Source of the DNA: Gemmataceae bacterium
GTDB lineage: Bacteria > Planctomycetota > Planctomycetia > Gemmatales > Gemmataceae
Assembly: GCA_003136315.1 (NCBI GenBank)
Contig: PLDW01000516.1
Location: forward strand, 53,086 to 117,085
Length of the DNA stretch: 64,000 nucleotides
Reading direction: 5' to 3'
Made by a program: the position numbers and the translations under genes. Numbering within the stretch: position 1 is the stretch's first letter; the number at the start of each line of letters is the position of its first letter. The notes below the pieces were generated by a model. That model searched no databases and had not been told where the DNA came from. It saw only the letters and a list, made by a program, of their open reading frames with translations. Positions 7,398 to 42,415 of the stretch are shown here, piece by piece.

Positions 7398-7820
7398 TCA
7401 TTTCTTTCCCTTCCGCATTCTTATGAAAGCTAAATATTTCAGTAGTTCATCTTCTTCTTCCGGAGTGAGTTGTTCTGATGCAAACGTGGGCAGACGGGAA
7501 CTTTTCTTGGACTTGGATTTGGCCGAGTCAACCGGCCGGATGTGTCCAGCAAGCTCCATCATTTTCTCATACGAGCACGAGATTGATGCATTCTTTGGCA
7601 GATACGTTTCATATACAGTTGATATTTCATGAAGGATCGCGGGCGAAGGGGTAGAGATTCGCCCAGTTTCGAGCTGGCTTAAGTAGGCATTGGATACTTT
7701 TCGTTCTGATGCTTCTTCTACCTCGCGCAAAGTCATATTGGCAGCCTTTCGGAGATCCCAGAGATATTGGCCCAGCGGCCCGCGCTCGGCTGGGGACAGG
7801 ATTGGGGTTTGCACGCTCAC
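7398..7820 (-). CDS. XRE-family HTH transcriptional regulator
   Basis: LRKAANMTLREVEEAS..VSNAYLSQLETG HTH_3 pattern; GTG start with GAGGAGG RBS. Confidence 0.9.
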   Translation of the reverse strand: MSVQTPILSPAERGPLGQYLWDLRKAANMTLREVEEASERKVSNAYLSQLETGRISTPSPAILHEISTVYETYLPKNASISCSYEKMMELAGHIRPVDSAKSKSKKSSRLPTFASEQLTPEEEDELLKYLAFIRMRKGKK

Positions 7821-8719: not shown

Positions 8720-9228
8720 GAACCCTCGCGCTGGCCGATCCCCAAATTGCGGCCGCGACATTCAAAGATCACCTTGACCGGCTCTGGCGCAATGGTCGCC
8801 CGGACCGGTTTGGCTGGGTCCGTAAAGATGTTGACAGTCTCCATACCCTCGTGACGCTCCCCGCCGAACGACCCACGGGCGAAAAGGATACCTATCACTT
8901 CCGGCTGGGCGCTGAATATTATGATGCAGCCCCTCCTACCGTGGCTCTCGTTCAACCGGATGGCTCGACACACACGGTTGGTGGTTCCCGATGGTTTCCA
9001 GTCCTGGAATCCCTGCCCGGATGGTTCGGGCTCCACGAGCACTACACGTGGCCAAACGGCACGCGGAGACAGCTTATCTGCTTCACCCTCTCGGCTGAGT
9101 TCTACATGACGGATCATTCGCCGAAAGAGTCGGAAGTCTGGAAACAAGGGCAGCACACGGTGGCGGCGACCCTCAACCGTCTGGCTGAGATATTGTCGCC
9201 CAAATACTACCGGAGACCTGCGGGATGA
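8710..9228 (+). CDS. bilB: E2-like ubiquitin-conjugating protein (BilB-like)
   Basis: YDAAPPTVALV E2 strand-turn motif and LICFTLSAEFY..H with candidate catalytic Cys; lies between Ubl and JAB; ATG at 8710 overlaps Ubl end. Confidence 0.75.
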   Translation: MPVRTLALADPQIAAATFKDHLDRLWRNGRPDRFGWVRKDVDSLHTLVTLPAERPTGEKDTYHFRLGAEYYDAAPPTVALVQPDGSTHTVGGSRWFPVLESLPGWFGLHEHYTWPNGTRRQLICFTLSAEFYMTDHSPKESEVWKQGQHTVAATLNRLAEILSPKYYRRPAG

Positions 9229-12364: not shown

Positions 12365-14515
12365 TCAGCTACCCTCGAGTGCTTTTAGCAACTTCTCCCG
12401 CAGTTCGTCTGGGATGTCGTCGAGAGTCATTTCCTCTCGCTCCAATAGTTCAAGCACCTGGAGGATGGACTTCCTTCCAGTGTGTATCTTCTGCAGCTCG
12501 TCTTCCGTTCTGTCGCGGTGAATGCGACGCATTTTGACTACCTCCTCCTGCGTGGGGTATTTGAATGACAGCGTGTAATTGTTATCGACGACCTGCTTCC
12601 ACTCTTCGGTCAAAAGGGCCATGCCGTCGCCAACTCCGCAGATACGCACCCAGGCACGTGATCGCGTGATGGCAGTGAAGAGAATGCTCCGACGACGGAT
12701 CGACCCTCCCCACCCACCAGCGCAGAATTCCGAGTTCAGGACGTACACCACCGCCGCCTCGTTGCCCTTCGCGCGGTAGATGCCTGAGATGGCGATGGAA
12801 TTAGCTACGTGGAATTCGTTCAGCCCGCGCGTGACCCCTGTAATGTGAGATTCGATACGTCTGGCCCGAAGTTGAGCAACGAGTGGCCCCGCGTCCTGAG
12901 CCGCAGTTACGGGATCGGTGAAGATAACTACGATATCGCTCGGTTCCAACTCGTCCTTTTCCAGATTCTCCTGAATCTGGGTGGCGACCCACTTTGCCTG
13001 CTCGGAGTGCGAGGTGAAACCATGCACTTGGACGGCATCATCAGGCGTAAGCAGTTTCCGGAAAAAGTCCGGCGTGGCGTCCGCTCGCCGCTGGAGGGTT
13101 ACCGAAGACCCGGCGGAAAGGTCACCGTTCGTCAGTTCGTAGCCGATGTCATGCCACAACGATGTGTCCTCGAACATCTGGATCAGGCCACCCTTGCGGT
13201 AGACACCGAATCCAAGTGCGTGCGCAGTAATCAAGGCCCACGGCGTGTTGCGATAGCAGACGGGCAGGATGATATCTTGGTGCGGTTGCGATTCGGCATT
13301 GCGTAGCTTTACCCTCGCCTCGCCTTCCTCATCAGTACCGAATAGCACCTTGAGATTCGGAACGGCAGTCTCCTTAAGGCTTTGTAGCTCATCATATGCC
13401 CATACGAAACGGTGTGGCGATCGTGTGCTGGCGTAGAGTAGGCGGAAGAAATTCGGCCCAAAGTCTTGGGCCTCGTCCACGAGCACGGCGTCAAAAAGCG
13501 CCTTTACGCCTTTGCTTTCTCTACTACGGATCTCCTTGATCGCCTCGCCGCAGATGCCTTCAAAGGCACCGGCAGCCATGTAACGCTGCTTGGCGTAGGA
13601 GTAATCTCTCACAATAAAATTATTTGCGCTTCCGATCAGGGAATAAACGCCCGGGTCCCTCTGGCCGCCCCACGCGTGAAGGACACGAAGTTTCTCCCAG
13701 TTGGGCTCGTCGCCGACGTGTTCAAACATGAACCGCCGGATGAGGTCCTGAAATTGGCCGTAAAGGGCGCGGGTCTGAAAGGTGACTAAGATGTTCCAGT
13801 CCGGATGCTGGGCATGCAGATACGCTGCTTTCAGCGCGAGGACCACTGTCTTCCCCGACCCTGCCAATCCTCTGATGCGTTGCGGCCCTTCCGGGCATTC
13901 GATCGCGGCCTTTTTCTGCCACCTGTCAAGGTTGGCAATCTCTCGCTCGATATGCTTGAGGATGCCACCCTTTGAATCCGCTTGTGTAACACTCGCCCGC
14001 TTTTTTTGGGGCTTGATGTTGATGACTTGCTGGATCGAGGCATTCAGGGCGCGTATATACTTCCGGTCAATGCCTTTGATAGCAGCGAGCGTGACCGAAA
14101 GTTCGCCGTGAGCGGCGATAATCAGGTTGTCGCTCGCGGGCAGTTTGACTGGTTTGCAGGGGAGATATGTGATGATACTGATCGGGGTCGCCAAATCGCG
14201 CTTTATCGTCAATTCCTTATGGCGTATTAATCTAGACTTCAGTGCTAGCTCGATTTCTGTTTGCCGCTCCTCCACCGCCGCCCACTCGGTCGGAGTGCTG
14301 TTACCGCTGGCTCGCGGACCCGCTGTGAGGTCGAAAACAACGATGCCATGCTCCACCGACGTCAGAATGGCATCCAGCGACAAGGACATGTCAGCGGTCG
14401 AGAGGATCGGGTATCCGACATAGAGTGTAGCGTCGGTCAAGGGGATCGCCTTCAACTCGTGGAGCAGATGCGCCACGGCTGTGGAATTAACGCTCGTCCC
14501 GATGACGTGGTCCAT
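12365..14515 (-). CDS. superfamily I DNA/RNA helicase (partner of DUF2290; helicase+DUF2290 defence system)
   Basis: GLAGSGKT, VLVDEAQD, YDELQ, YRN, IYRAKGNEA, FTAITRSR; ATG 14515 has AGAGG RBS. Confidence 0.9.
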   Translation of the reverse strand: MDHVIGTSVNSTAVAHLLHELKAIPLTDATLYVGYPILSTADMSLSLDAILTSVEHGIVVFDLTAGPRASGNSTPTEWAAVEERQTEIELALKSRLIRHKELTIKRDLATPISIITYLPCKPVKLPASDNLIIAAHGELSVTLAAIKGIDRKYIRALNASIQQVINIKPQKKRASVTQADSKGGILKHIEREIANLDRWQKKAAIECPEGPQRIRGLAGSGKTVVLALKAAYLHAQHPDWNILVTFQTRALYGQFQDLIRRFMFEHVGDEPNWEKLRVLHAWGGQRDPGVYSLIGSANNFIVRDYSYAKQRYMAAGAFEGICGEAIKEIRSRESKGVKALFDAVLVDEAQDFGPNFFRLLYASTRSPHRFVWAYDELQSLKETAVPNLKVLFGTDEEGEARVKLRNAESQPHQDIILPVCYRNTPWALITAHALGFGVYRKGGLIQMFEDTSLWHDIGYELTNGDLSAGSSVTLQRRADATPDFFRKLLTPDDAVQVHGFTSHSEQAKWVATQIQENLEKDELEPSDIVVIFTDPVTAAQDAGPLVAQLRARRIESHITGVTRGLNEFHVANSIAISGIYRAKGNEAAVVYVLNSEFCAGGWGGSIRRRSILFTAITRSRAWVRICGVGDGMALLTEEWKQVVDNNYTLSFKYPTQEEVVKMRRIHRDRTEDELQKIHTGRKSILQVLELLEREEMTLDDIPDELREKLLKALEGS

Positions 14516-20932: not shown

Positions 20933-21418
20933 CTAGCCGAACAGCCTCCTCATGATCCTCCCAAACCAGCCAGCCTGAGTGGGGTTTGCCGGTGTGGGCG
21001 GTGAAGCCGCTGCCATAGGGACCGGCGACAGGGGGATCGGGGACAACACAGAGGGAGAGGCAAGAACGTCGGGTCTCGGCTTCAGGCAGTCGATGTAGTT
21101 TGACTTGGCCTGCGAGTCAGCGGCCTGCCCGGCTTCGATTTCGGCACTGGACCACTGACTCGCCCACCTTATCTGGTTGTGGGTTATCCAGTAGTGGGAC
21201 TTGCACGGGAGGCTCCAGCTCCCTATCGATGGATAAAGGGAGATCGTCCGCCCATCGTAGATCAACTGCCAGTCGGCGGGGGACAGCGGCGTCACGACCT
21301 CGTTGCCACAGCCACAACAGCATTTGTGGACTACGGTTGCGTAGATCATCGAGATGTAGAGAGTTCCTTCTTGCAGGACGTCGGGAACGAACTCAACAAA
21401 CACTGGCGTGATTACCAT
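20933..21418 (-). CDS. DUF6527-family protein
   Basis: HKCCCGCGNEVVTPLSP..W......SLYPSIGSWSLPCKSHYWI; start overlaps upstream ThiF end. Confidence 0.88.
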   Translation of the reverse strand: MVITPVFVEFVPDVLQEGTLYISMIYATVVHKCCCGCGNEVVTPLSPADWQLIYDGRTISLYPSIGSWSLPCKSHYWITHNQIRWASQWSSAEIEAGQAADSQAKSNYIDCLKPRPDVLASPSVLSPIPLSPVPMAAASPPTPANPTQAGWFGRIMRRLFG

Positions 21419-22598
21419 TTTGCTCGCCCAGTTGGTCGCCGTTAATGAGCCCGCCAGTCCGCACGTTGTAAAACGAGTTATGCTCCTGCGGAACATCGTG
21501 GTAAAAGCCAAACAGCTTCTTCCATTTGACGACGGCAAGAGCCGCATTGAGGCAATTCAGGTCTGCGATCTGGATGTTCGTGGAGTAGGCGTCGTCAACA
21601 TCGTCCACGAGCGAAACCCGGCGGCGCACGTGGTCACGCTTCGAGGGCGTGCTTGTGGTGACCCGGACCAGCCCGGACAACGCCCCGTCCTCCTGCGCCA
21701 ACCCCATACCGACATCGATAAAGGGAGTGCCCCACTCCTCCAACCTGGTGATCAGCGTCTTCTTGTACTTGCCGCCGTCGCAGCAGATGAAGACGAACTT
21801 CATCCCCCGGAGGCTTTCGACGTTGCTATCGTCGATGTACTCTGGGTGTGCGTGGATGCCCCGTCGCATGTTTGAGTAGAAGTCCCTGAAGTAGACCACC
21901 TTGTACTCGATCGATCGGAGGATTTCGATCGTCGGAGCACCGGGTGACCTGAAGGCGTTGTGGTTCAGAAACCGGTCCCCGTCGAACAGGTGTATCTCCT
22001 TGACAGGGCACTTCGCCAGGAGGTCGAGCACATAGGAGCCGGTGCCCCCAAGGCCCACGATGGCGACCTTCTCCAACTCCAGCTTGGCGGTAAGGGTGGT
22101 GATCCCGGCCCGGCTTGAGGCGGTGTCGGGGTAGCAGAAGACCGACTCGTCCTCAGTGGTTTCGGCGATTTTGTAGGTCTGGGCGGTCACCGTATTGTCG
22201 ATCGCTCTCGCCGGGGGCGTGATCATCTCGACGTAACGGGTGATCTGCTCGTAGTAGCCGGGGTAGCCCTCTGGCGGCTTGTTTGAGAAAGATCGGTTGG
22301 CTGTGAGGCTGTCGCTAATGTGGTAGGGGGTGGTAGTGTGCTTCAAGCCGGTTATCTCGGTCCCGTCGATATTGCACGGGTGGTCACCGATGAAGTAGGC
22401 AACGTGGGTGTCGGGTTTCTGGACCATGTCGCCCGCGATGACGAGCTTGACGGCGAGAACCCCATACGCGACCTCCTTGCCGGAGTTCACGTAGGGGATG
22501 TGCCCCACGAGGAGGTGGCTTGCGACCACCTCCAGTTCATACCCGTTGTCGCGGAGCCTGACGAGGTCCGGGCTACGAGCGATTAGTTGACTTGACAT
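21393..22598 (-). CDS. E2-like (DUF6791-type) + ThiF/E1 fusion protein
   Basis: N-terminal VGHIPYVN...HVAYFIGDHPC...FSNKP; C-terminal IVGLGGTGSYVLD, LFDGD..LNHNAFRSPG, FICCD, QIADLNCLNA. Confidence 0.88.
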   Translation of the reverse strand: MSSQLIARSPDLVRLRDNGYELEVVASHLLVGHIPYVNSGKEVAYGVLAVKLVIAGDMVQKPDTHVAYFIGDHPCNIDGTEITGLKHTTTPYHISDSLTANRSFSNKPPEGYPGYYEQITRYVEMITPPARAIDNTVTAQTYKIAETTEDESVFCYPDTASSRAGITTLTAKLELEKVAIVGLGGTGSYVLDLLAKCPVKEIHLFDGDRFLNHNAFRSPGAPTIEILRSIEYKVVYFRDFYSNMRRGIHAHPEYIDDSNVESLRGMKFVFICCDGGKYKKTLITRLEEWGTPFIDVGMGLAQEDGALSGLVRVTTSTPSKRDHVRRRVSLVDDVDDAYSTNIQIADLNCLNAALAVVKWKKLFGFYHDVPQEHNSFYNVRTGGLINGDQLGEQNGNHASVC

Positions 22599-22848
22599 CG
22601 AATATCATCCTGTTCTTGCCTTCAACCGATTCCCCAGGGGCGAGAGTGCCTTCGTGGTGGCCCTCTCTGTAGGCCACGGAGATCACCTTGTCGGGGGCGG
22701 GGGTAAACCCAGCCAAGGTCACGATCTCGTCATAGGTCAGCAGCCCCTTCTTCACCCTCTTCTCTCGTCCGTTCACGATGATCACGATCTCGTCGTGGTG
22801 CCCGTGGGCGTCGTGACCTGGGAAGGACTTTTCGGCGGTGCTTTCCAT
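22573..22848 (-). CDS. single multiubiquitin-type Ubl with His-rich N-terminus
   Basis: IIVNGREK....LTYDEIVTLAG...VAY...GTLAPGESV....MIFDVKSTNRS*. Confidence 0.82.
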   Translation of the reverse strand: MESTAEKSFPGHDAHGHHDEIVIIVNGREKRVKKGLLTYDEIVTLAGFTPAPDKVISVAYREGHHEGTLAPGESVEGKNRMIFDVKSTNRS

Positions 22849-23136
22849 GTGAACTATTTCTGCCGTGTAAAACGGCGTTACGTGTGTGGACCCTGTTTCG
22901 GGAGGGCGCTGGAACCCGCAGGGTAGTTGGAACACCGGCCTTTTGGTGAGCGGCTATAGGCGCGAGGTCCGACCCCTGGTTAGGATGGGCGATTAGTCAT
23001 CTGCCCCTGGAAGGAAATACGACCGGGTGTAACAGCCCTCGCCTTTCGACAGAAGACGGCCACACCGGGCGGCTTGTAAGGAACTACGAGGGTGCGTAAC
23101 AGGTTGGGGGGGTGTTACGGGCCATCGTAGAAAGAG

Positions 23137-23808
23137 TTGCAGCAGGATGCTGGTTCTGAAGACGAGCGAGATATGGCCAGCCAAGAATCACCCGAGGATG
23201 AAAACACCCGATTAGCGATATCGCTACTCGACGATAATGAGGACGCCCTCAAGGAGATGCTGCGCCGGTACGGTCCGGACATCATCAAAGTCCTGCACGC
23301 CAAGTTCACCTTGCGGCTGAAGTCTCTAACGTTAGAGGACATCGAGGACGTGGTGGCGGTTGCCATTCACCGCATCTGGGACGCCCGGAAGGTATATGAC
23401 GACAAACAACAGTCACTCCGCGTCTGGTTCTACTGCATCGCCGAGAACGTGGCGAAAGATGTATTGAAACACGGCTGGTACAAGGCCCGCCGCCTGGAGC
23501 GAAACCCGGGGCAGGACTGGCTTGAAGCTCGTCCCGACTGTGCCGTTCACGAGCCGCAGATGCAGAAGAAGGACGAGAGGCGGAAAGAGTCGAAGCGGAT
23601 GCAGGATCTCGCTACGGTTGTGAACAAACTTCCAGAGGTTCAGCGTAGAATATTATTGACGGACGCTGCCATGCGCGACGGTGTGGCCTCAAGCGAACTG
23701 CTTGCCAACGAACTCGACATCCCCGTCGCCCACGTCCGCGTCTACCGCTTTCGGGGAATGGCGACCGTTCGAAAAGAGATGACGAAACTTGGGCATGACA
23801 TTCCCTGA
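23137..23808 (+). CDS. sigma-70 family (ECF-like) RNA polymerase sigma factor
   Basis: Region 2 DIEDVVAVAIHRIW..SLRVWFYCIAENVAKD; region 4 LPEVQRRIL..ELANELDIPVAHVRVYRFRG; start may be 23173. Confidence 0.85.
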   Translation: MQQDAGSEDERDMASQESPEDENTRLAISLLDDNEDALKEMLRRYGPDIIKVLHAKFTLRLKSLTLEDIEDVVAVAIHRIWDARKVYDDKQQSLRVWFYCIAENVAKDVLKHGWYKARRLERNPGQDWLEARPDCAVHEPQMQKKDERRKESKRMQDLATVVNKLPEVQRRILLTDAAMRDGVASSELLANELDIPVAHVRVYRFRGMATVRKEMTKLGHDIP

Positions 23809-24199
23809 CACACGCAGGCACCCCATGACCCCCGCCGACCTAGATGCTCAACTGCGCAGACTAATTGCCAAAGCCTTGGTACCACCCGATCTGTGCGCCA
23901 CGGACCCGCACGACATCGAAGCTATGCTTGACGCAGCCAAGGGAGAACCGCTGCCCGAGAGCCAAGTCGAGCGTATTCTGAAGAAGGCGAAAGGCGAACT
24001 CCCGGTTGGTGAACGAGAGGAGGAGCAGCCGGTTTGGTCTGGCGAGGCACTCACGGAAGAAGAGGAAGCTCTGGTCGCTCTCCATCGGAAAGAGGGAGGT
24101 GAGTTGCCAGCGGAGATCAAGGAGAAACTCCGCCGGTTACGTGATTTGGCTCGTGCGGAGCCAGAAGCAGGGAGAGAAGGAGAAGGCAGTGACGACTAA
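23795..24199 (+). CDS. acidic helical hypothetical protein (anti-sigma or peptidase-substrate candidate)
   Basis: Overlaps both the sigma stop and the peptidase start; no family recognised. Confidence 0.7.
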   Translation: MTFPDTRRHPMTPADLDAQLRRLIAKALVPPDLCATDPHDIEAMLDAAKGEPLPESQVERILKKAKGELPVGEREEEQPVWSGEALTEEEEALVALHRKEGGELPAEIKEKLRRLRDLARAEPEAGREGEGSDD

Positions 24200-25085
24200 C
24201 TGGAACAAAGCGCGGGCGAGCCGAGACGAGGCGGCGAACATAGCGGAGATGATTGTCCAAGGGCTGGAAATAACGAAGCCGCCCGTGAGCCCATTCGATG
24301 TCATTCGGTCCGAACGTCGGCGGCTGGTCGCCTTCGGAGACGATTTCGGAGATGCCTTCGATGGCCGTCTTGAGTACCAGAAGCCAAAGTTCATCATCTT
24401 CTACAACACAAAGTACGACGCATGGCCGCACAAGGGGAAGCACCACCCGAAGGTCACTTTCACCATCGCGCATGAAGTCGGCCATTTCTGCCTAGCCCGG
24501 CATCGTAACTACCTCAAGAAGGGCGGTAGTCCCCACGGATCGCAGACGGAGTTTGTCTCGGACAACCTGTCCGAGCGCGAGGCCGACGCCTTTGCTGCGG
24601 GCTTACTCATGCCGAAGTTCCTGGCCGACGATGTTGTCAACGCTGGGCCACCTGAGTTCAAGGACGTGCAGGAGGCGAAAGACCTCTTTGAAGTCTCCCT
24701 CACAAGCATGATGTTGCGCTGGGTCCAGTTGTCGAACTTCCCGTGCGCAATGTGCTCTGTCCGCGACGGGAGCATCGAATGGGGTCTTACATCCGATGCC
24801 TTCAAAAAGGCAGGTGCGTACAAGGTGAACCGGGGAAAGCGAGTTACGTCCAGGGCCGCCACCAAGTTCATCTCGGTTGATCCGTCAATTTCTCGCTACC
24901 GGGATGAAGAAAGGTGGGGATCGGCTGAACACTGGCTCGACTTTGAACGCACAGACCTCGGGGTCGTCGAACACTTCGTGGCTATCCCTTCTACCAAGCA
25001 GGTTCTAGTGTTCATCACTGCCGATGAAGAAGATACATTTAAATGTCTTGATGATGACGATCGGTTAGAAAATTCTGACGAATAG
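24189..25085 (+). CDS. ImmA/IrrE-family zinc metallopeptidase
   Basis: FTIAHEVGHF (HExxH), EREADAFAAGLLMP, FEVSLTS; GTG start at 24189. Confidence 0.9.
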   Translation: MTTNWNKARASRDEAANIAEMIVQGLEITKPPVSPFDVIRSERRRLVAFGDDFGDAFDGRLEYQKPKFIIFYNTKYDAWPHKGKHHPKVTFTIAHEVGHFCLARHRNYLKKGGSPHGSQTEFVSDNLSEREADAFAAGLLMPKFLADDVVNAGPPEFKDVQEAKDLFEVSLTSMMLRWVQLSNFPCAMCSVRDGSIEWGLTSDAFKKAGAYKVNRGKRVTSRAATKFISVDPSISRYRDEERWGSAEHWLDFERTDLGVVEHFVAIPSTKQVLVFITADEEDTFKCLDDDDRLENSDE

Positions 25086-41108: not shown

Positions 41109-41456
41109 TTATGTGAGCCGAGCCAACAGCGGGTTCACTATCAACAGCGTCTCCCGGTCGGCATTCTCCAGCAACTGCCTGGCGCGGTCCCGCAGCGCCG
41201 ATAATGTGTCCGGTGGCTCCGTGGGCGGGAGCAGTTCCGTCACCGTCATCCGAAGCGATCGCGCCAATCGATCCAGCAGATCAAGTCCCGGAGACGCGTT
41301 GCCGCTTTCCAATTTGCTCAGGTGAGACAGGGCGACCTGGGCCTGCCGGGCCAGTTCTGCCTGCGTCATGTCGCGGGCCAGCCTGAGTTCGCGCAGTCGA
41401 ACGGCAAACCGCTGCACGATGTCGGCGTGCTGTATTCTGGTTTTCCGCTTGGCCAT
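41109..41456 (-). CDS. XRE-family HTH regulator
   Basis: RFAVRLRELRLARDMTQAELARQAQVALSHLSKLESG..PGLDLLDRLA. Confidence 0.88.
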   Translation of the reverse strand: MAKRKTRIQHADIVQRFAVRLRELRLARDMTQAELARQAQVALSHLSKLESGNASPGLDLLDRLARSLRMTVTELLPPTEPPDTLSALRDRARQLLENADRETLLIVNPLLARLT

Positions 41457-41999
41457 GCGCTCCCCCATCTTCTTATCGCCAAGAATGGCGAGGGAACGGC
41501 ATACGTAAAACAGGTGATTGACAACCGTTTTTGAGGTTGTAGGATGAGGTATCAGGTGCTCGGTGGCTGGCCGTTTCGCCGCCAGGAGGGATGAACCCAA
41601 GGCTCGACCATCGACCGAATCGATGCCAGTGCGGATGACGGCCGTTACCGCAACCAATCACTCCGGAGCAGCCCGTCCGCACAGGCAAGAAGGGCAGGAA
41701 GCCTGGCAGTGGGCCGCGGGAGCTAATCAGGAAGAATAACCGTTAATGTCCGCAGAACGATCAACCCCTGGGCACGGGCGAGTCCCCGTCACTCACTCTA
41801 GGTAGCGTCTATTGCGTTCGATCGTAAAGGTGGAGGACCAAGCATGCAACCGTGTATGGCAGGATCACGAGACACGCAACAGCCTCTGGGGAGGAAGAAC
41901 GGCCCGTCAGGCGGGCCTGCTGCTGCGTCCCCAAAGCGTGATCACTCTCCCAGAAACGGCGCAATCCCGCGCGTGATTCCAGGCCCGATCTCGCTTGCC

Positions 42000-42233
42000 T
42001 CAGTCCTTGCCCAACAACTCGAAGCGGAGCAGTTCGGCTGGAGCGACTCCGAGCCCCTCGGCAATCAAGCAAATGTTGTCCAAACTCACGTTGCGCTTTC
42101 CTCGCTCCACGCTCCCGAAATAGCTGCGATCCAGCTTGATTGCATGCGCGAACGCCTCCTGCGAGATGCCTTTTGCCGTCCGAAGCTGGCGAACACGCCG
42201 GCCAAACAGCACTTTTGGGTCATCGGATGCCAT
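42000..42233 (-). CDS. XRE-family HTH regulator (C-protein-like)
   Basis: FGRRVRQLRTAKGISQEAFA..LDRSYFGSVERGKRNVSLDNI. Confidence 0.9.
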   Translation of the reverse strand: MASDDPKVLFGRRVRQLRTAKGISQEAFAHAIKLDRSYFGSVERGKRNVSLDNICLIAEGLGVAPAELLRFELLGKD

Positions 42234-42415
42234 CCTCTGACTGTGACGCCTTGCTGGCTTTTCATCCACGGGCTATAAAGCCACGGACTTTAAGCACCAG
42301 GCGGAGTCGTTCCCGACATCGAGCAGGCCGTGCACGCGGCATCGTCACCGGCCTCCGCCGCAGTGACGTTTAACGCCCGAATGCTTGAAGGCTCCCGGAT
42401 GCGTTGGAGTCAGCC

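Follow-up and report, generated by a model that had tools for sequence, protein, structure and literature searches.

Known regulators of bacterial defence operons

How immune operons stay silent and are then switched on is an active question, and the described regulators CapH/CapP, CapW and CapK/CapS all do so by removing a repressor. The closest to the case discussed here pairs CapH, a helix-turn-helix (HTH) repressor associated with antiphage signaling systems based on cyclic oligonucleotides (CBASS), with CapP, an M78 peptidase activated by single-stranded DNA (ssDNA) (Lau et al., 2022, bioRxiv 10.1101/2022.04.27.489752). The CapP cut in CapH falls within helix 1 of the C-terminal domain, between F82 and R83, and an R83A variant is uncleavable (Lau et al., 2022). 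The pair also accompanies 31% of Bub operons (bioRxiv 10.1101/2024.11.21.623953), and a constant regulator with interchangeable defence cargo is a pattern described for CapH/CapP, CapW and CapK/CapS alike. Here, we focus on a cassette that has a peptidase of the CapP type and a different partner. It lies in a 64,000-nucleotide stretch from a Gemmataceae bacterium (assembly GCA_003136315.1, contig PLDW01000516.1, positions 53,086 to 117,085; this whole stretch is referred to as the window), and it consists of genes for an extracytoplasmic function (ECF)-type sigma factor, a small acidic protein and the peptidase, placed back to back with a Bub operon. From comparison of sequences we think it rather likely that CapP-type cleavage of a soluble anti-sigma releases an ECF sigma dedicated to the Bub operon and to the cassette itself.

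Two defence systems controlled by a sigma factor have been described. In type III-E CRISPR, cleavage of Csx30 by Csx29 relieves inhibition of the ECF factor CASP-sigma (Strecker et al., 2022, PMC10028731). This CASP module (Csx29, Csx30, CASP-sigma) is like the proposed cassette in that a defence-associated protease cuts a soluble inhibitor of an ECF sigma, and in that the sigma motifs lie within its own locus with positive autoregulation. The proteins, however, are unrelated: the CASP protease is a caspase-like TPR-CHAT protein activated by target RNA via Cas7-11, and Csx30 is much larger than the acidic protein. In Myxococcus xanthus, the ECF sigma DdvS and the transmembrane anti-sigma DdvA control two CBASS and a type III-B CRISPR system (PMC11506125). 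Here too, a dedicated ECF sigma turns on an adjacent defence island once proteolysis has removed its anti-sigma. DdvA sits in the membrane, combines a zinc-binding anti-sigma domain of three helices with a TPR-CHAT module in the periplasm, and is processed by RseP, whereas the candidate anti-sigma in the window is small, soluble and without a zinc motif, and its protease would be a cytoplasmic CapP. CapK/CapS and CapW/BrxR (PMC13373217) share with the cassette a compact regulator at the promoters of defence operons that are interchangeable, including 59 of 544 Bub operons, but they employ a kinase with a STAS-winged HTH repressor or a WYL-HTH repressor, with no protease and no sigma.

Sigma factors next to capP have been recorded before. 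Table S1 of Lau et al. (2022) gives 'Sigma-70 present' for 24 CBASS systems, for example in Bradyrhizobium sp. WSM1417 and Variovorax sp. OV084, and its accession numbers imply the order sigma, 'capH', capP. In the literature searched, such cassettes are mentioned only in passing, by this flag, and their mechanism is undescribed. A search of 201 Bradyrhizobiaceae-type genomes for these systems led to seven extended loci, all of them plain CapH-CapP without a sigma.

A CapP homologue and an ECF sigma factor

The peptidase matches the Pfam family Peptidase_M78 (2.9e-7) and carries the motif HEVGH. Residues H95, E96 and H99 of this HExxH motif and the downstream Glu ligand, E129, are invariant among 30 homologues. 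A profile of the same 30 homologues matches Thauera CapP (7t5t) with an E-value of 8.1e-20 over residues 58-277 of 298, which takes in peptidase, linker and GAF regions, while the match to IrrE is far weaker (1.3e-4). The AlphaFold2 (AF2) model of a homologue naturally fused to its partner (P0098, pLDDT 85) has 7t5t as its best Foldseek match (E 4.7e-13, TM 0.69), followed by IrrE/PprI, and the window protein has the three-domain architecture of CapP, with a peptidase, an HTH-like linker and, at its C-terminus, a GAF domain. By profile and by fold, the window peptidase is thus a true CapP homologue, from the same peptidase family and with the same three-domain fold. What differs is its neighbor. 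In CapH/CapP an XRE-HTH protein is encoded alongside, whereas the gene upstream of the window peptidase encodes no HTH and is unmatched by a CapH-like profile. The 'cysteine switch' loop, which has its Cys in one third of CapP proteins, is another point of difference: in the window (24486-24545, peptidase residues 100-119) it is full length without a Cys, and GG-x2-H-x-S is conserved there within the subfamily instead.

DdrO/IrrE (PprI) of Deinococcus and ImmR/ImmA of ICEBs1 and phages involve peptidases of the same M78 superfamily, and in both, DNA damage leads to cleavage of a regulator close to its C-terminal domain; the ssDNA-binding site of IrrE lies between the peptidase and GAF domains. 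Unlike the cassette, these systems have XRE-type repressors as substrates and no sigma. By homology, the window peptidase would likewise be activated by ssDNA or DNA damage. An earlier reading of this DNA, made from the sequence only, had spoken of infection-triggered proteolysis; what homology points to is ssDNA or DNA damage and not infection as such.

The first gene of the cassette encodes a protein with a match to Pfam Sigma70_r2 (1.2e-7, 31.8 bits against a cut-off of 24) and a weak one to r4_2 (15.5 bits). It aligns with the NCBIfam model TIGR02937 (sigma70-ECF) over its full length, 1-165 of 165, at 48.9 bits (cut-off 42.9). With sigma2 and sigma4 as its only regions and a fit to the ECF model, the product of 23173-23808 belongs to the ECF group (group 4), and the majority of its 71 homologues are annotated as 'RNA polymerase sigma factor (sigma-70 family)'. 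The model of the type III-E CASP-sigma, CAS_III-E_sigma (NF041236), gives 23.5 bits for the window sigma, below the cut-off of 100.

The acidic partner and its arginine

The middle protein belongs to a family of 272 clusters (E<=1e-3) among 1.84 billion representatives, with zero significant matches in Pfam, NCBIfam and PDB. It is acidic, with an isoelectric point (pI) of 4.63 and 31 D+E residues against 18 K+R. Its AF2 model, which has low global confidence (pLDDT 71, pTM 0.27), shows helices at 3-18, 28-37 and 45-55, a disordered acidic linker at 56-77 and two further helices at 78-88 and 96-111; a Foldseek search with this model gave no match. The N-terminal XRE-type HTH of CapH is absent by Pfam and NCBIfam, and AF2 places three short helices in this part. 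Acidity sets the whole group apart from CapH, since the median pI values of partner proteins are 4.4 and 4.9 as opposed to 9.2 in CapH-like proteins, which argues for protein binding over DNA binding.

Across 17 partner orthologues from several phyla, R88 is the sole invariant residue, within the motif [L/M][H/F/Y/N]-R. In the model it stands at the end of helix 4, the first of the two C-terminal helices, after the disordered linker. CapH-like proteins, too, have one invariant residue in their C-terminal half, the Arg of [F/Y/H]-R, and the partner motif resembles the F|R site at which CapP cleaves CapH. Between the two clades of cassettes, partners differ in their N-terminal part, like the sigmas, and share the Arg motif. 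The middle gene lies directly 3' of the sigma gene in the same orientation, the layout of a sigma and its anti-sigma, and the two overlap or abut in nearly all orthologous loci. Indirectly, the gene order, the acidity and the clade-wise N-terminus point to the middle protein as the putative anti-sigma of the cassette sigma, and the Arg motif points to it as the putative substrate of the peptidase.

Partner type follows peptidase lineage

Natural fusions join the members of the cassette. Two metagenome proteins, P0014 (405 aa) and P0098 (409 aa, on three contigs), combine partner and peptidase in one chain, and capH-capP fusions were likewise noted by Lau et al. (2022). In a metagenome-assembled genome of Polyangiales (locus L056, 7100-7822, + strand), the sigma carries the C-terminal module of the partner ('HHRNLDEATASDL' / '...QLHHRNLDEATASDLAELLADL') at its own C-terminus. 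This protein matches Sigma70_r2 at 25.8 bits, above the cut-off, and the next gene is that of the peptidase, a separate middle gene being absent. The fusion is a Rosetta-stone link between the sigma and the putative cleavable module. Another protein, P0179 (359 aa), was considered as a sigma-middle fusion and discarded as a frameshift-type read-through.

A wider view comes from a sample of 87 CapP-like loci, 81 of them from the genome contig collection. Whereas a single-protein scan of the genome contigs gave one relative only, an alignment-based scan with over-general patterns (HELGH) returned a broad CapP-like sample, which served as the control set. In about 45 of the loci an XRE-HTH gene of the CapH-like kind lies directly upstream of the peptidase, and the profile of these proteins has the HTH domain of CapH (7t5u) as its best PDB match. 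Within the sample, none of the CapH-type loci has a sigma in the cassette and none of the sigma-type loci has a CapH repressor. A partner of the window type is always preceded by an ECF-type sigma gene (L056 has no separate partner), which is not so in CapH/CapP. On a maximum-likelihood tree of the peptidases with 75 labelled rows (39 CapH-type and 36 sigma-type), the partner type needs two changes. Shuffled labels need 25 on average, and none of 500 shuffles was as low as two. The sigma-type peptidases form two clades, with the window in the better supported one (SH-aLRT 95).

Therefore, peptidase lineage and partner type are tied together, which argues strongly against an unlinked substrate. 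The sequence-only reading had offered such a substrate, the XRE protein of 7398-7820 (- strand), as an alternative, and if the peptidase did cleave an unlinked XRE repressor like this one, the sigma and the middle protein would be unrelated passengers. The tail of this protein ('...LPTFASEQLTPEEEDELLKYLAF' / '...LPTFASEQLTPEEEDELLKYLAFIRMRK') is loosely like the C-termini of cleavable CapH/ImmR-type proteins. However, the protein is unmatched by the CapH-like profile at E<=1 and has an Ala at the invariant Arg of CapH (F-A where CapH has F-R), the partner type is fixed by peptidase lineage, and peptidase and middle protein are linked by natural fusions. We regard this explanation as extremely improbable.

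Distribution and cargo

The order sigma, acidic partner, peptidase is found in 35 of the 87 loci, which come from at least nine phyla. All 12 close relatives of the peptidase with retrieved DNA keep it, with a partner of about 120 aa; they come from metagenome contigs and from Planctomycetota (Phycisphaerae, Pirellulaceae, Kuenenia, Botrimarina, Posidoniimonas, and Rhodopirellula- and Gimesia-type proteins). Another 23 loci with the same order are more distant and belong to Verrucomicrobiota (Opitutaceae, Oceanipulchritudo and Verrucomicrobiaceae among the carriers), Bacteroidota (Flavobacterium, Mucilaginibacter, Prolixibacteraceae), Acidobacteriota, Myxococcota, Nitrospirota (Nitrospira), Chloroflexota (Anaerolineae), Ignavibacteriota (Ignavibacteriaceae) and Betaproteobacteria (Ideonella).

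Like CapH/CapP, the cassette stands upstream of, and divergent from, a defence operon, Bub operons included. Where the neighbor is annotated, it is usually a defence operon that differs from locus to locus (Bub I/II, Bil-like, CBASS, TIR or a Pycsar-like cyclase). Type II Bub operons accompany the cassette in the window, L082 and L080. JAB-E1 fusions of the Type I Bub kind do so in L015 and L044, a Multi_ubiq-JAB-E1 protein in L001 and an E2-E1-JAB fusion in L083. CBASS-like cargo, with a patatin or SAVED protein and a DncV/SMODS-type nucleotidyltransferase (CD-NTase), is found in L084, L086, L070 and L049, and TIR proteins in L002, L085 and L006. L004 has a PD-(D/E)XK nuclease with a UvrD helicase, and L012 a nucleotide cyclase. 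The neighborhood check that had been suggested for the triad thus found its order conserved and the adjoining defence operons varied. With this distribution, the triad is probably a self-contained, horizontally portable transcription switch, the sigma-based counterpart of CapH/CapP.

Directional motifs between cassette and Bub operon

The intergenic region shared by the cassette and the Bub operon has three copies of a directional motif of the form TGT(A/T)AC-N7-CGTA (consensus TGTAACG-N5-TCGTA), one facing the sigma gene and two facing the Bub operon. This directional pair differs from the palindrome expected of a repressor such as CapH. A sigma-facing copy is found in the equivalent position in L001, L002, L015 and L082-L087. 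The back-to-back layout, with the TGTAAC ends inward and CGTA toward the genes, recurs in L001, L002, L005, L015 and L082-L087, whatever the cargo. Moreover, the two copies of a pair co-vary: L004 has GGTAAC-N7-GGTAT, L015 has CGTT and L038 has TGTCAC-N7-CRTC.

The half-sites are ECF-like, with TGTAAC similar to a -35 box and CGTA to a -10 box, and are found 26-63 nt ahead of the sigma start codons, a likeness and a position that fit a local regulon with positive autoregulation. A scan of the intergenic region with the sigma-70 consensus gave no promoter. In the 11.6-Mb genome there are five strict matches to the motif, about the chance number, and three of the five stand inside one 112-bp stretch, the intergenic region. 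The other two, together with a match at window position 13985, were rejected as real sites, their number being what chance predicts. The last of these (13985-14001, + strand, TGTAACACTCGCCCGCT) is a looser, fourth match in the window; it lies in the Bil/helicase block and ends in CGCT and not CGTA. With motifs confined to the sigma/Bub region, the dedicated regulon appears to consist of the Bub operon and the cassette. The earlier proposal that the sigma serves the neighboring defence genes would therefore apply to these two, and not to others such as the AbiT-like block.

The position of the motif also bears on a wholly different role for the cassette. It could govern functions of a mobile element, such as excision or transfer in the way of ImmR/ImmA of ICEBs1, and the defence genes would then be mere neighbors. 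ImmA and ImmR are indeed relatives, and integrases or transposases are found near several cassettes. However, in annotated loci the region with the twin motif is usually shared with a defence-type operon (Bub, Bil-like, CBASS or TIR), not with an integrase or transfer gene, and in the genome the motif is restricted to that region, bar the two chance-number matches. This role seems to us very unlikely.

Two features beside the motifs deserve mention. The distal Bub-directed copy is followed, 12-15 nt on, by a (T)AG(A/G)GGCAG box and then by a leader of about 170 nt (22849-23017 of the window on the - strand, 6673-6847 of L082, and in L084-L086). At the position of this leader small genes of 55-70 aa are called in L084-L086, and the long leader of the window has no Rfam match. 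In L084, a second back-to-back pair stands 3' of the peptidase (8933-8968), between a ParA-like and an ankyrin-repeat gene, which suggests that some cassettes may control additional neighbors.

A model for the switch and its rivals

At rest, the N-terminal three-helix part of the 124-aa acidic protein would hold the ECF-type sigma inactive. The CapP-type metallopeptidase would be switched on, to judge by its homologues, by ssDNA that arises from DNA damage or phage replication, and would then cut the acidic protein either at the invariant Arg88 of [L/M][H/F/Y]-R, at the end of helix 4, or beside it. The fragments would lose their grip on the sigma, and the freed sigma would guide RNA polymerase to the directional TGTAACG-N5-TCGTA elements of the shared intergenic region. 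One of these would drive the cassette, as a positive feedback, and two the divergent Type II Bub operon. In this way the predicted output would be activation by a freed sigma and not de-repression as in CapH/CapP. The binding of sigma and partner, the cleavage, the ssDNA trigger and the role of the motif as the promoter of this sigma are steps that we infer. Taken jointly and in its most specific form, namely that an ssDNA-sensing CapP cleaves a new family of small soluble anti-sigmas at a CapH-like aromatic|Arg site and that the freed sigma initiates from TGTAAC-N7-CGTA, the scheme is doubtful.

Several observations weigh against the cleaved anti-sigma. The first concerns the partner itself, which has no known anti-sigma domain: there is no HxxxCxxC motif of zinc-binding anti-sigmas (ZAS), no other Cys/His motif, and no family or fold match. 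Its likeness to CapH is also limited. Profile-profile comparison with hhalign gave E-values of 0.015 for clade A partners with CapH, 0.0021 for clade B with CapH and 0.074 for clade A with clade B, each as a single match with the Arg residues in register, but at probabilities of only 1-13% (3% for the match with E 0.015). A profile of the C-terminal module of CapH failed to pick the partners among 14,577 open reading frames (ORFs), with a best E-value of 3. As this search was not significant, the likeness of partner and CapH is treated as motif-level and not as proven homology.

The fusion in L056, in which the module sits on the sigma itself, is a further such point, as a separate anti-sigma domain would be unneeded in some lineages. 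It leads to another explanation, in which the middle protein acts positively, as a co-factor or adaptor that might, for instance, bring the sigma or the peptidase to its target, and its cleavage switches the system off, or in which the peptidase processes the sigma itself. In L056 the module is joined directly to the sigma without the N-terminal domain of the partner, and the partner-peptidase fusions link the partner to the peptidase only, both of which would suit a co-factor. On the other hand, cleavage removes an inhibitor in all known relatives (CapH/CapP, DdrO/IrrE and ImmR/ImmA), a sigma gene followed by a small partner is the usual order of sigma and anti-sigma genes, and the partner N-terminus varies by clade alongside the sigmas with the Arg motif constant. 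On balance, we consider a co-factor quite unlikely.

The last point is the spacing of the motif. At autoregulated ECF promoters, a (G/T)GAAC-like -35 box and a CGT-like -10 box are 16-17 bp apart. The half-sites found here are separated by 7 bp, a misfit with standard sigma2/sigma4 geometry, and the sigma-directed copies have no further conserved box at 16-17 bp. The motif may therefore be an operator or act in an unusual manner. In what is our main alternative, TGTAACG-N5-TCGTA sites are operators, bound by the sigma-like protein or its complex with the partner as an ordinary DNA-binding regulator while RNA polymerase uses another sigma, and the peptidase relieves or imposes this binding. A spacing about 10 bp short of any canonical ECF -35/-10 arrangement and the missing further box both speak for operators. 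Yet the half-sites are strictly directional, resemble ECF -35 and -10 boxes and stand 26-63 nt 5' of the sigma start codons, the sigma fits the ECF model over its full length and above the cut-off, and the region has no sigma-70-type promoter. For these reasons the operator alternative appears unlikely. A positive-acting sigma variant of CapH/CapP with the middle protein as substrate had been the core of the sequence-only reading; the comparative evidence fits this core, and the reading as a whole is partly supported, with the abnormal motif spacing among the points against it.

If the anti-sigma model is true, the sigma version of the switch would provide control that is positive, amplifies itself, is specific to its promoters and is orthogonal to the host. 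It would also account for the regulation of Bub, Bil-like and CBASS operons where CapH is absent, in Planctomycetota, Verrucomicrobiota, Bacteroidota, Acidobacteriota and other phyla. It would add a new family of small anti-sigma candidates with one defined residue, R88, and make the cassette a testable route to the trigger and role of the Bub ubiquitin-like systems. The sigma, promoter and protease could also serve together as an orthogonal switch inducible by DNA damage. As a promoter, the motif with its 7-bp spacing would be of interest to the transcription field, with boxes one helical turn closer than in any known sigma-70-family promoter; sigma2 and sigma4 would then have to adopt a non-canonical geometry, or promoters would have to be recognized in a new way.

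Organization of the locus

The features of the locus are collected in Table 1. The triad is on the + strand and divergent from the Multi_ubiq, DUF6791+ThiF and DUF6527 genes on the - strand, which bears out the divergent layout noted from the sequence. Comparison with orthologues moved several starts. The sigma most likely begins at ATG 23173 and not at TTG 23137, given that its 211-aa product is present in the protein collection (P0121) and the N-termini of orthologues agree; TTG 23137 is 8 nt past the promoter-like motif. For the middle gene the most probable start is ATG 23825 (MTP..., like its orthologue in L082) and not 23789, and the peptidase begins at GTG 24189 and not at 24006. The three genes had been described as overlapping. 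After correction, sigma and middle gene are separated by 16 nt and middle gene and peptidase overlap by 11 nt, so that the tight packing holds and the mutual overlap of all three does not. The absence of a fused XRE HTH was borne out by zero HTH family matches in the three proteins, and so was that of an adjacent repressor, as the nearest ORFs that fit the CapH-like profile are 41112-41657 and 42003-42272.

On the other side of the 324 bp that separate ATG 23173 from the Bub operon, the genes of 20933-22848 encode a ubiquitin-like protein, an E2-E1 fusion in one protein and BubE, with no JAB match in Pfam. This is the architecture defined for Type II Bub (bioRxiv 10.1101/2024.11.21.623953).

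Table 1. Genes and putative cis elements of the sigma cassette and the divergent Bub operon (window coordinates).
Feature	Position	Strand	Evidence or remark
ECF-type sigma factor, 211 aa, sigma2 + sigma4	23173..23808	+	Sigma70_r2, TIGR02937
Small acidic partner, 124 aa; putative soluble anti-sigma and CapP substrate	23825..24199	+	orthologue comparison
CapP-type M78 zinc metallopeptidase, 298 aa; peptidase, HTH-like linker and GAF-like domain	24189..25085	+	
Motif TGTTACGGGCCATCGTA, sigma-directed; putative autoregulated promoter	23113..23129	+	43 nt upstream of ATG 23173
Motif TGTTACGCACCCTCGTA, Bub-directed, proximal copy	23085..23101	-	back to back with the + copy, 11 bp apart
Motif TGTTACACCCGGTCGTA, Bub-directed, distal copy, followed by box AGGGGCAG	23018..23034	-	
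BubA-type ubiquitin-like protein, first cargo gene	22573..22848	-	Multi_ubiq 1.5e-10; start ATG 22848 inferred from the 95-aa L082 orthologue
BubBD-type E2-E1 fusion	21393..22598	-	Pfam DUF6791 1.9e-52, ThiF 9.9e-11
BubE	20933..21547	-	Pfam DUF6527 9.4e-25; family PF20137:BubE in precomputed annotation

The 11.6-Mb genome has a single copy of the triad. Elsewhere in it, an XRE-HTH ORF that fits the CapH-like profile is followed directly by an ORF with a weak match to the peptidase profile (E 2.6e-4; contig C213, 9986-11437), and a truncated peptidase-like ORF (E 5e-17) lies at the end of contig C74 (67-660).

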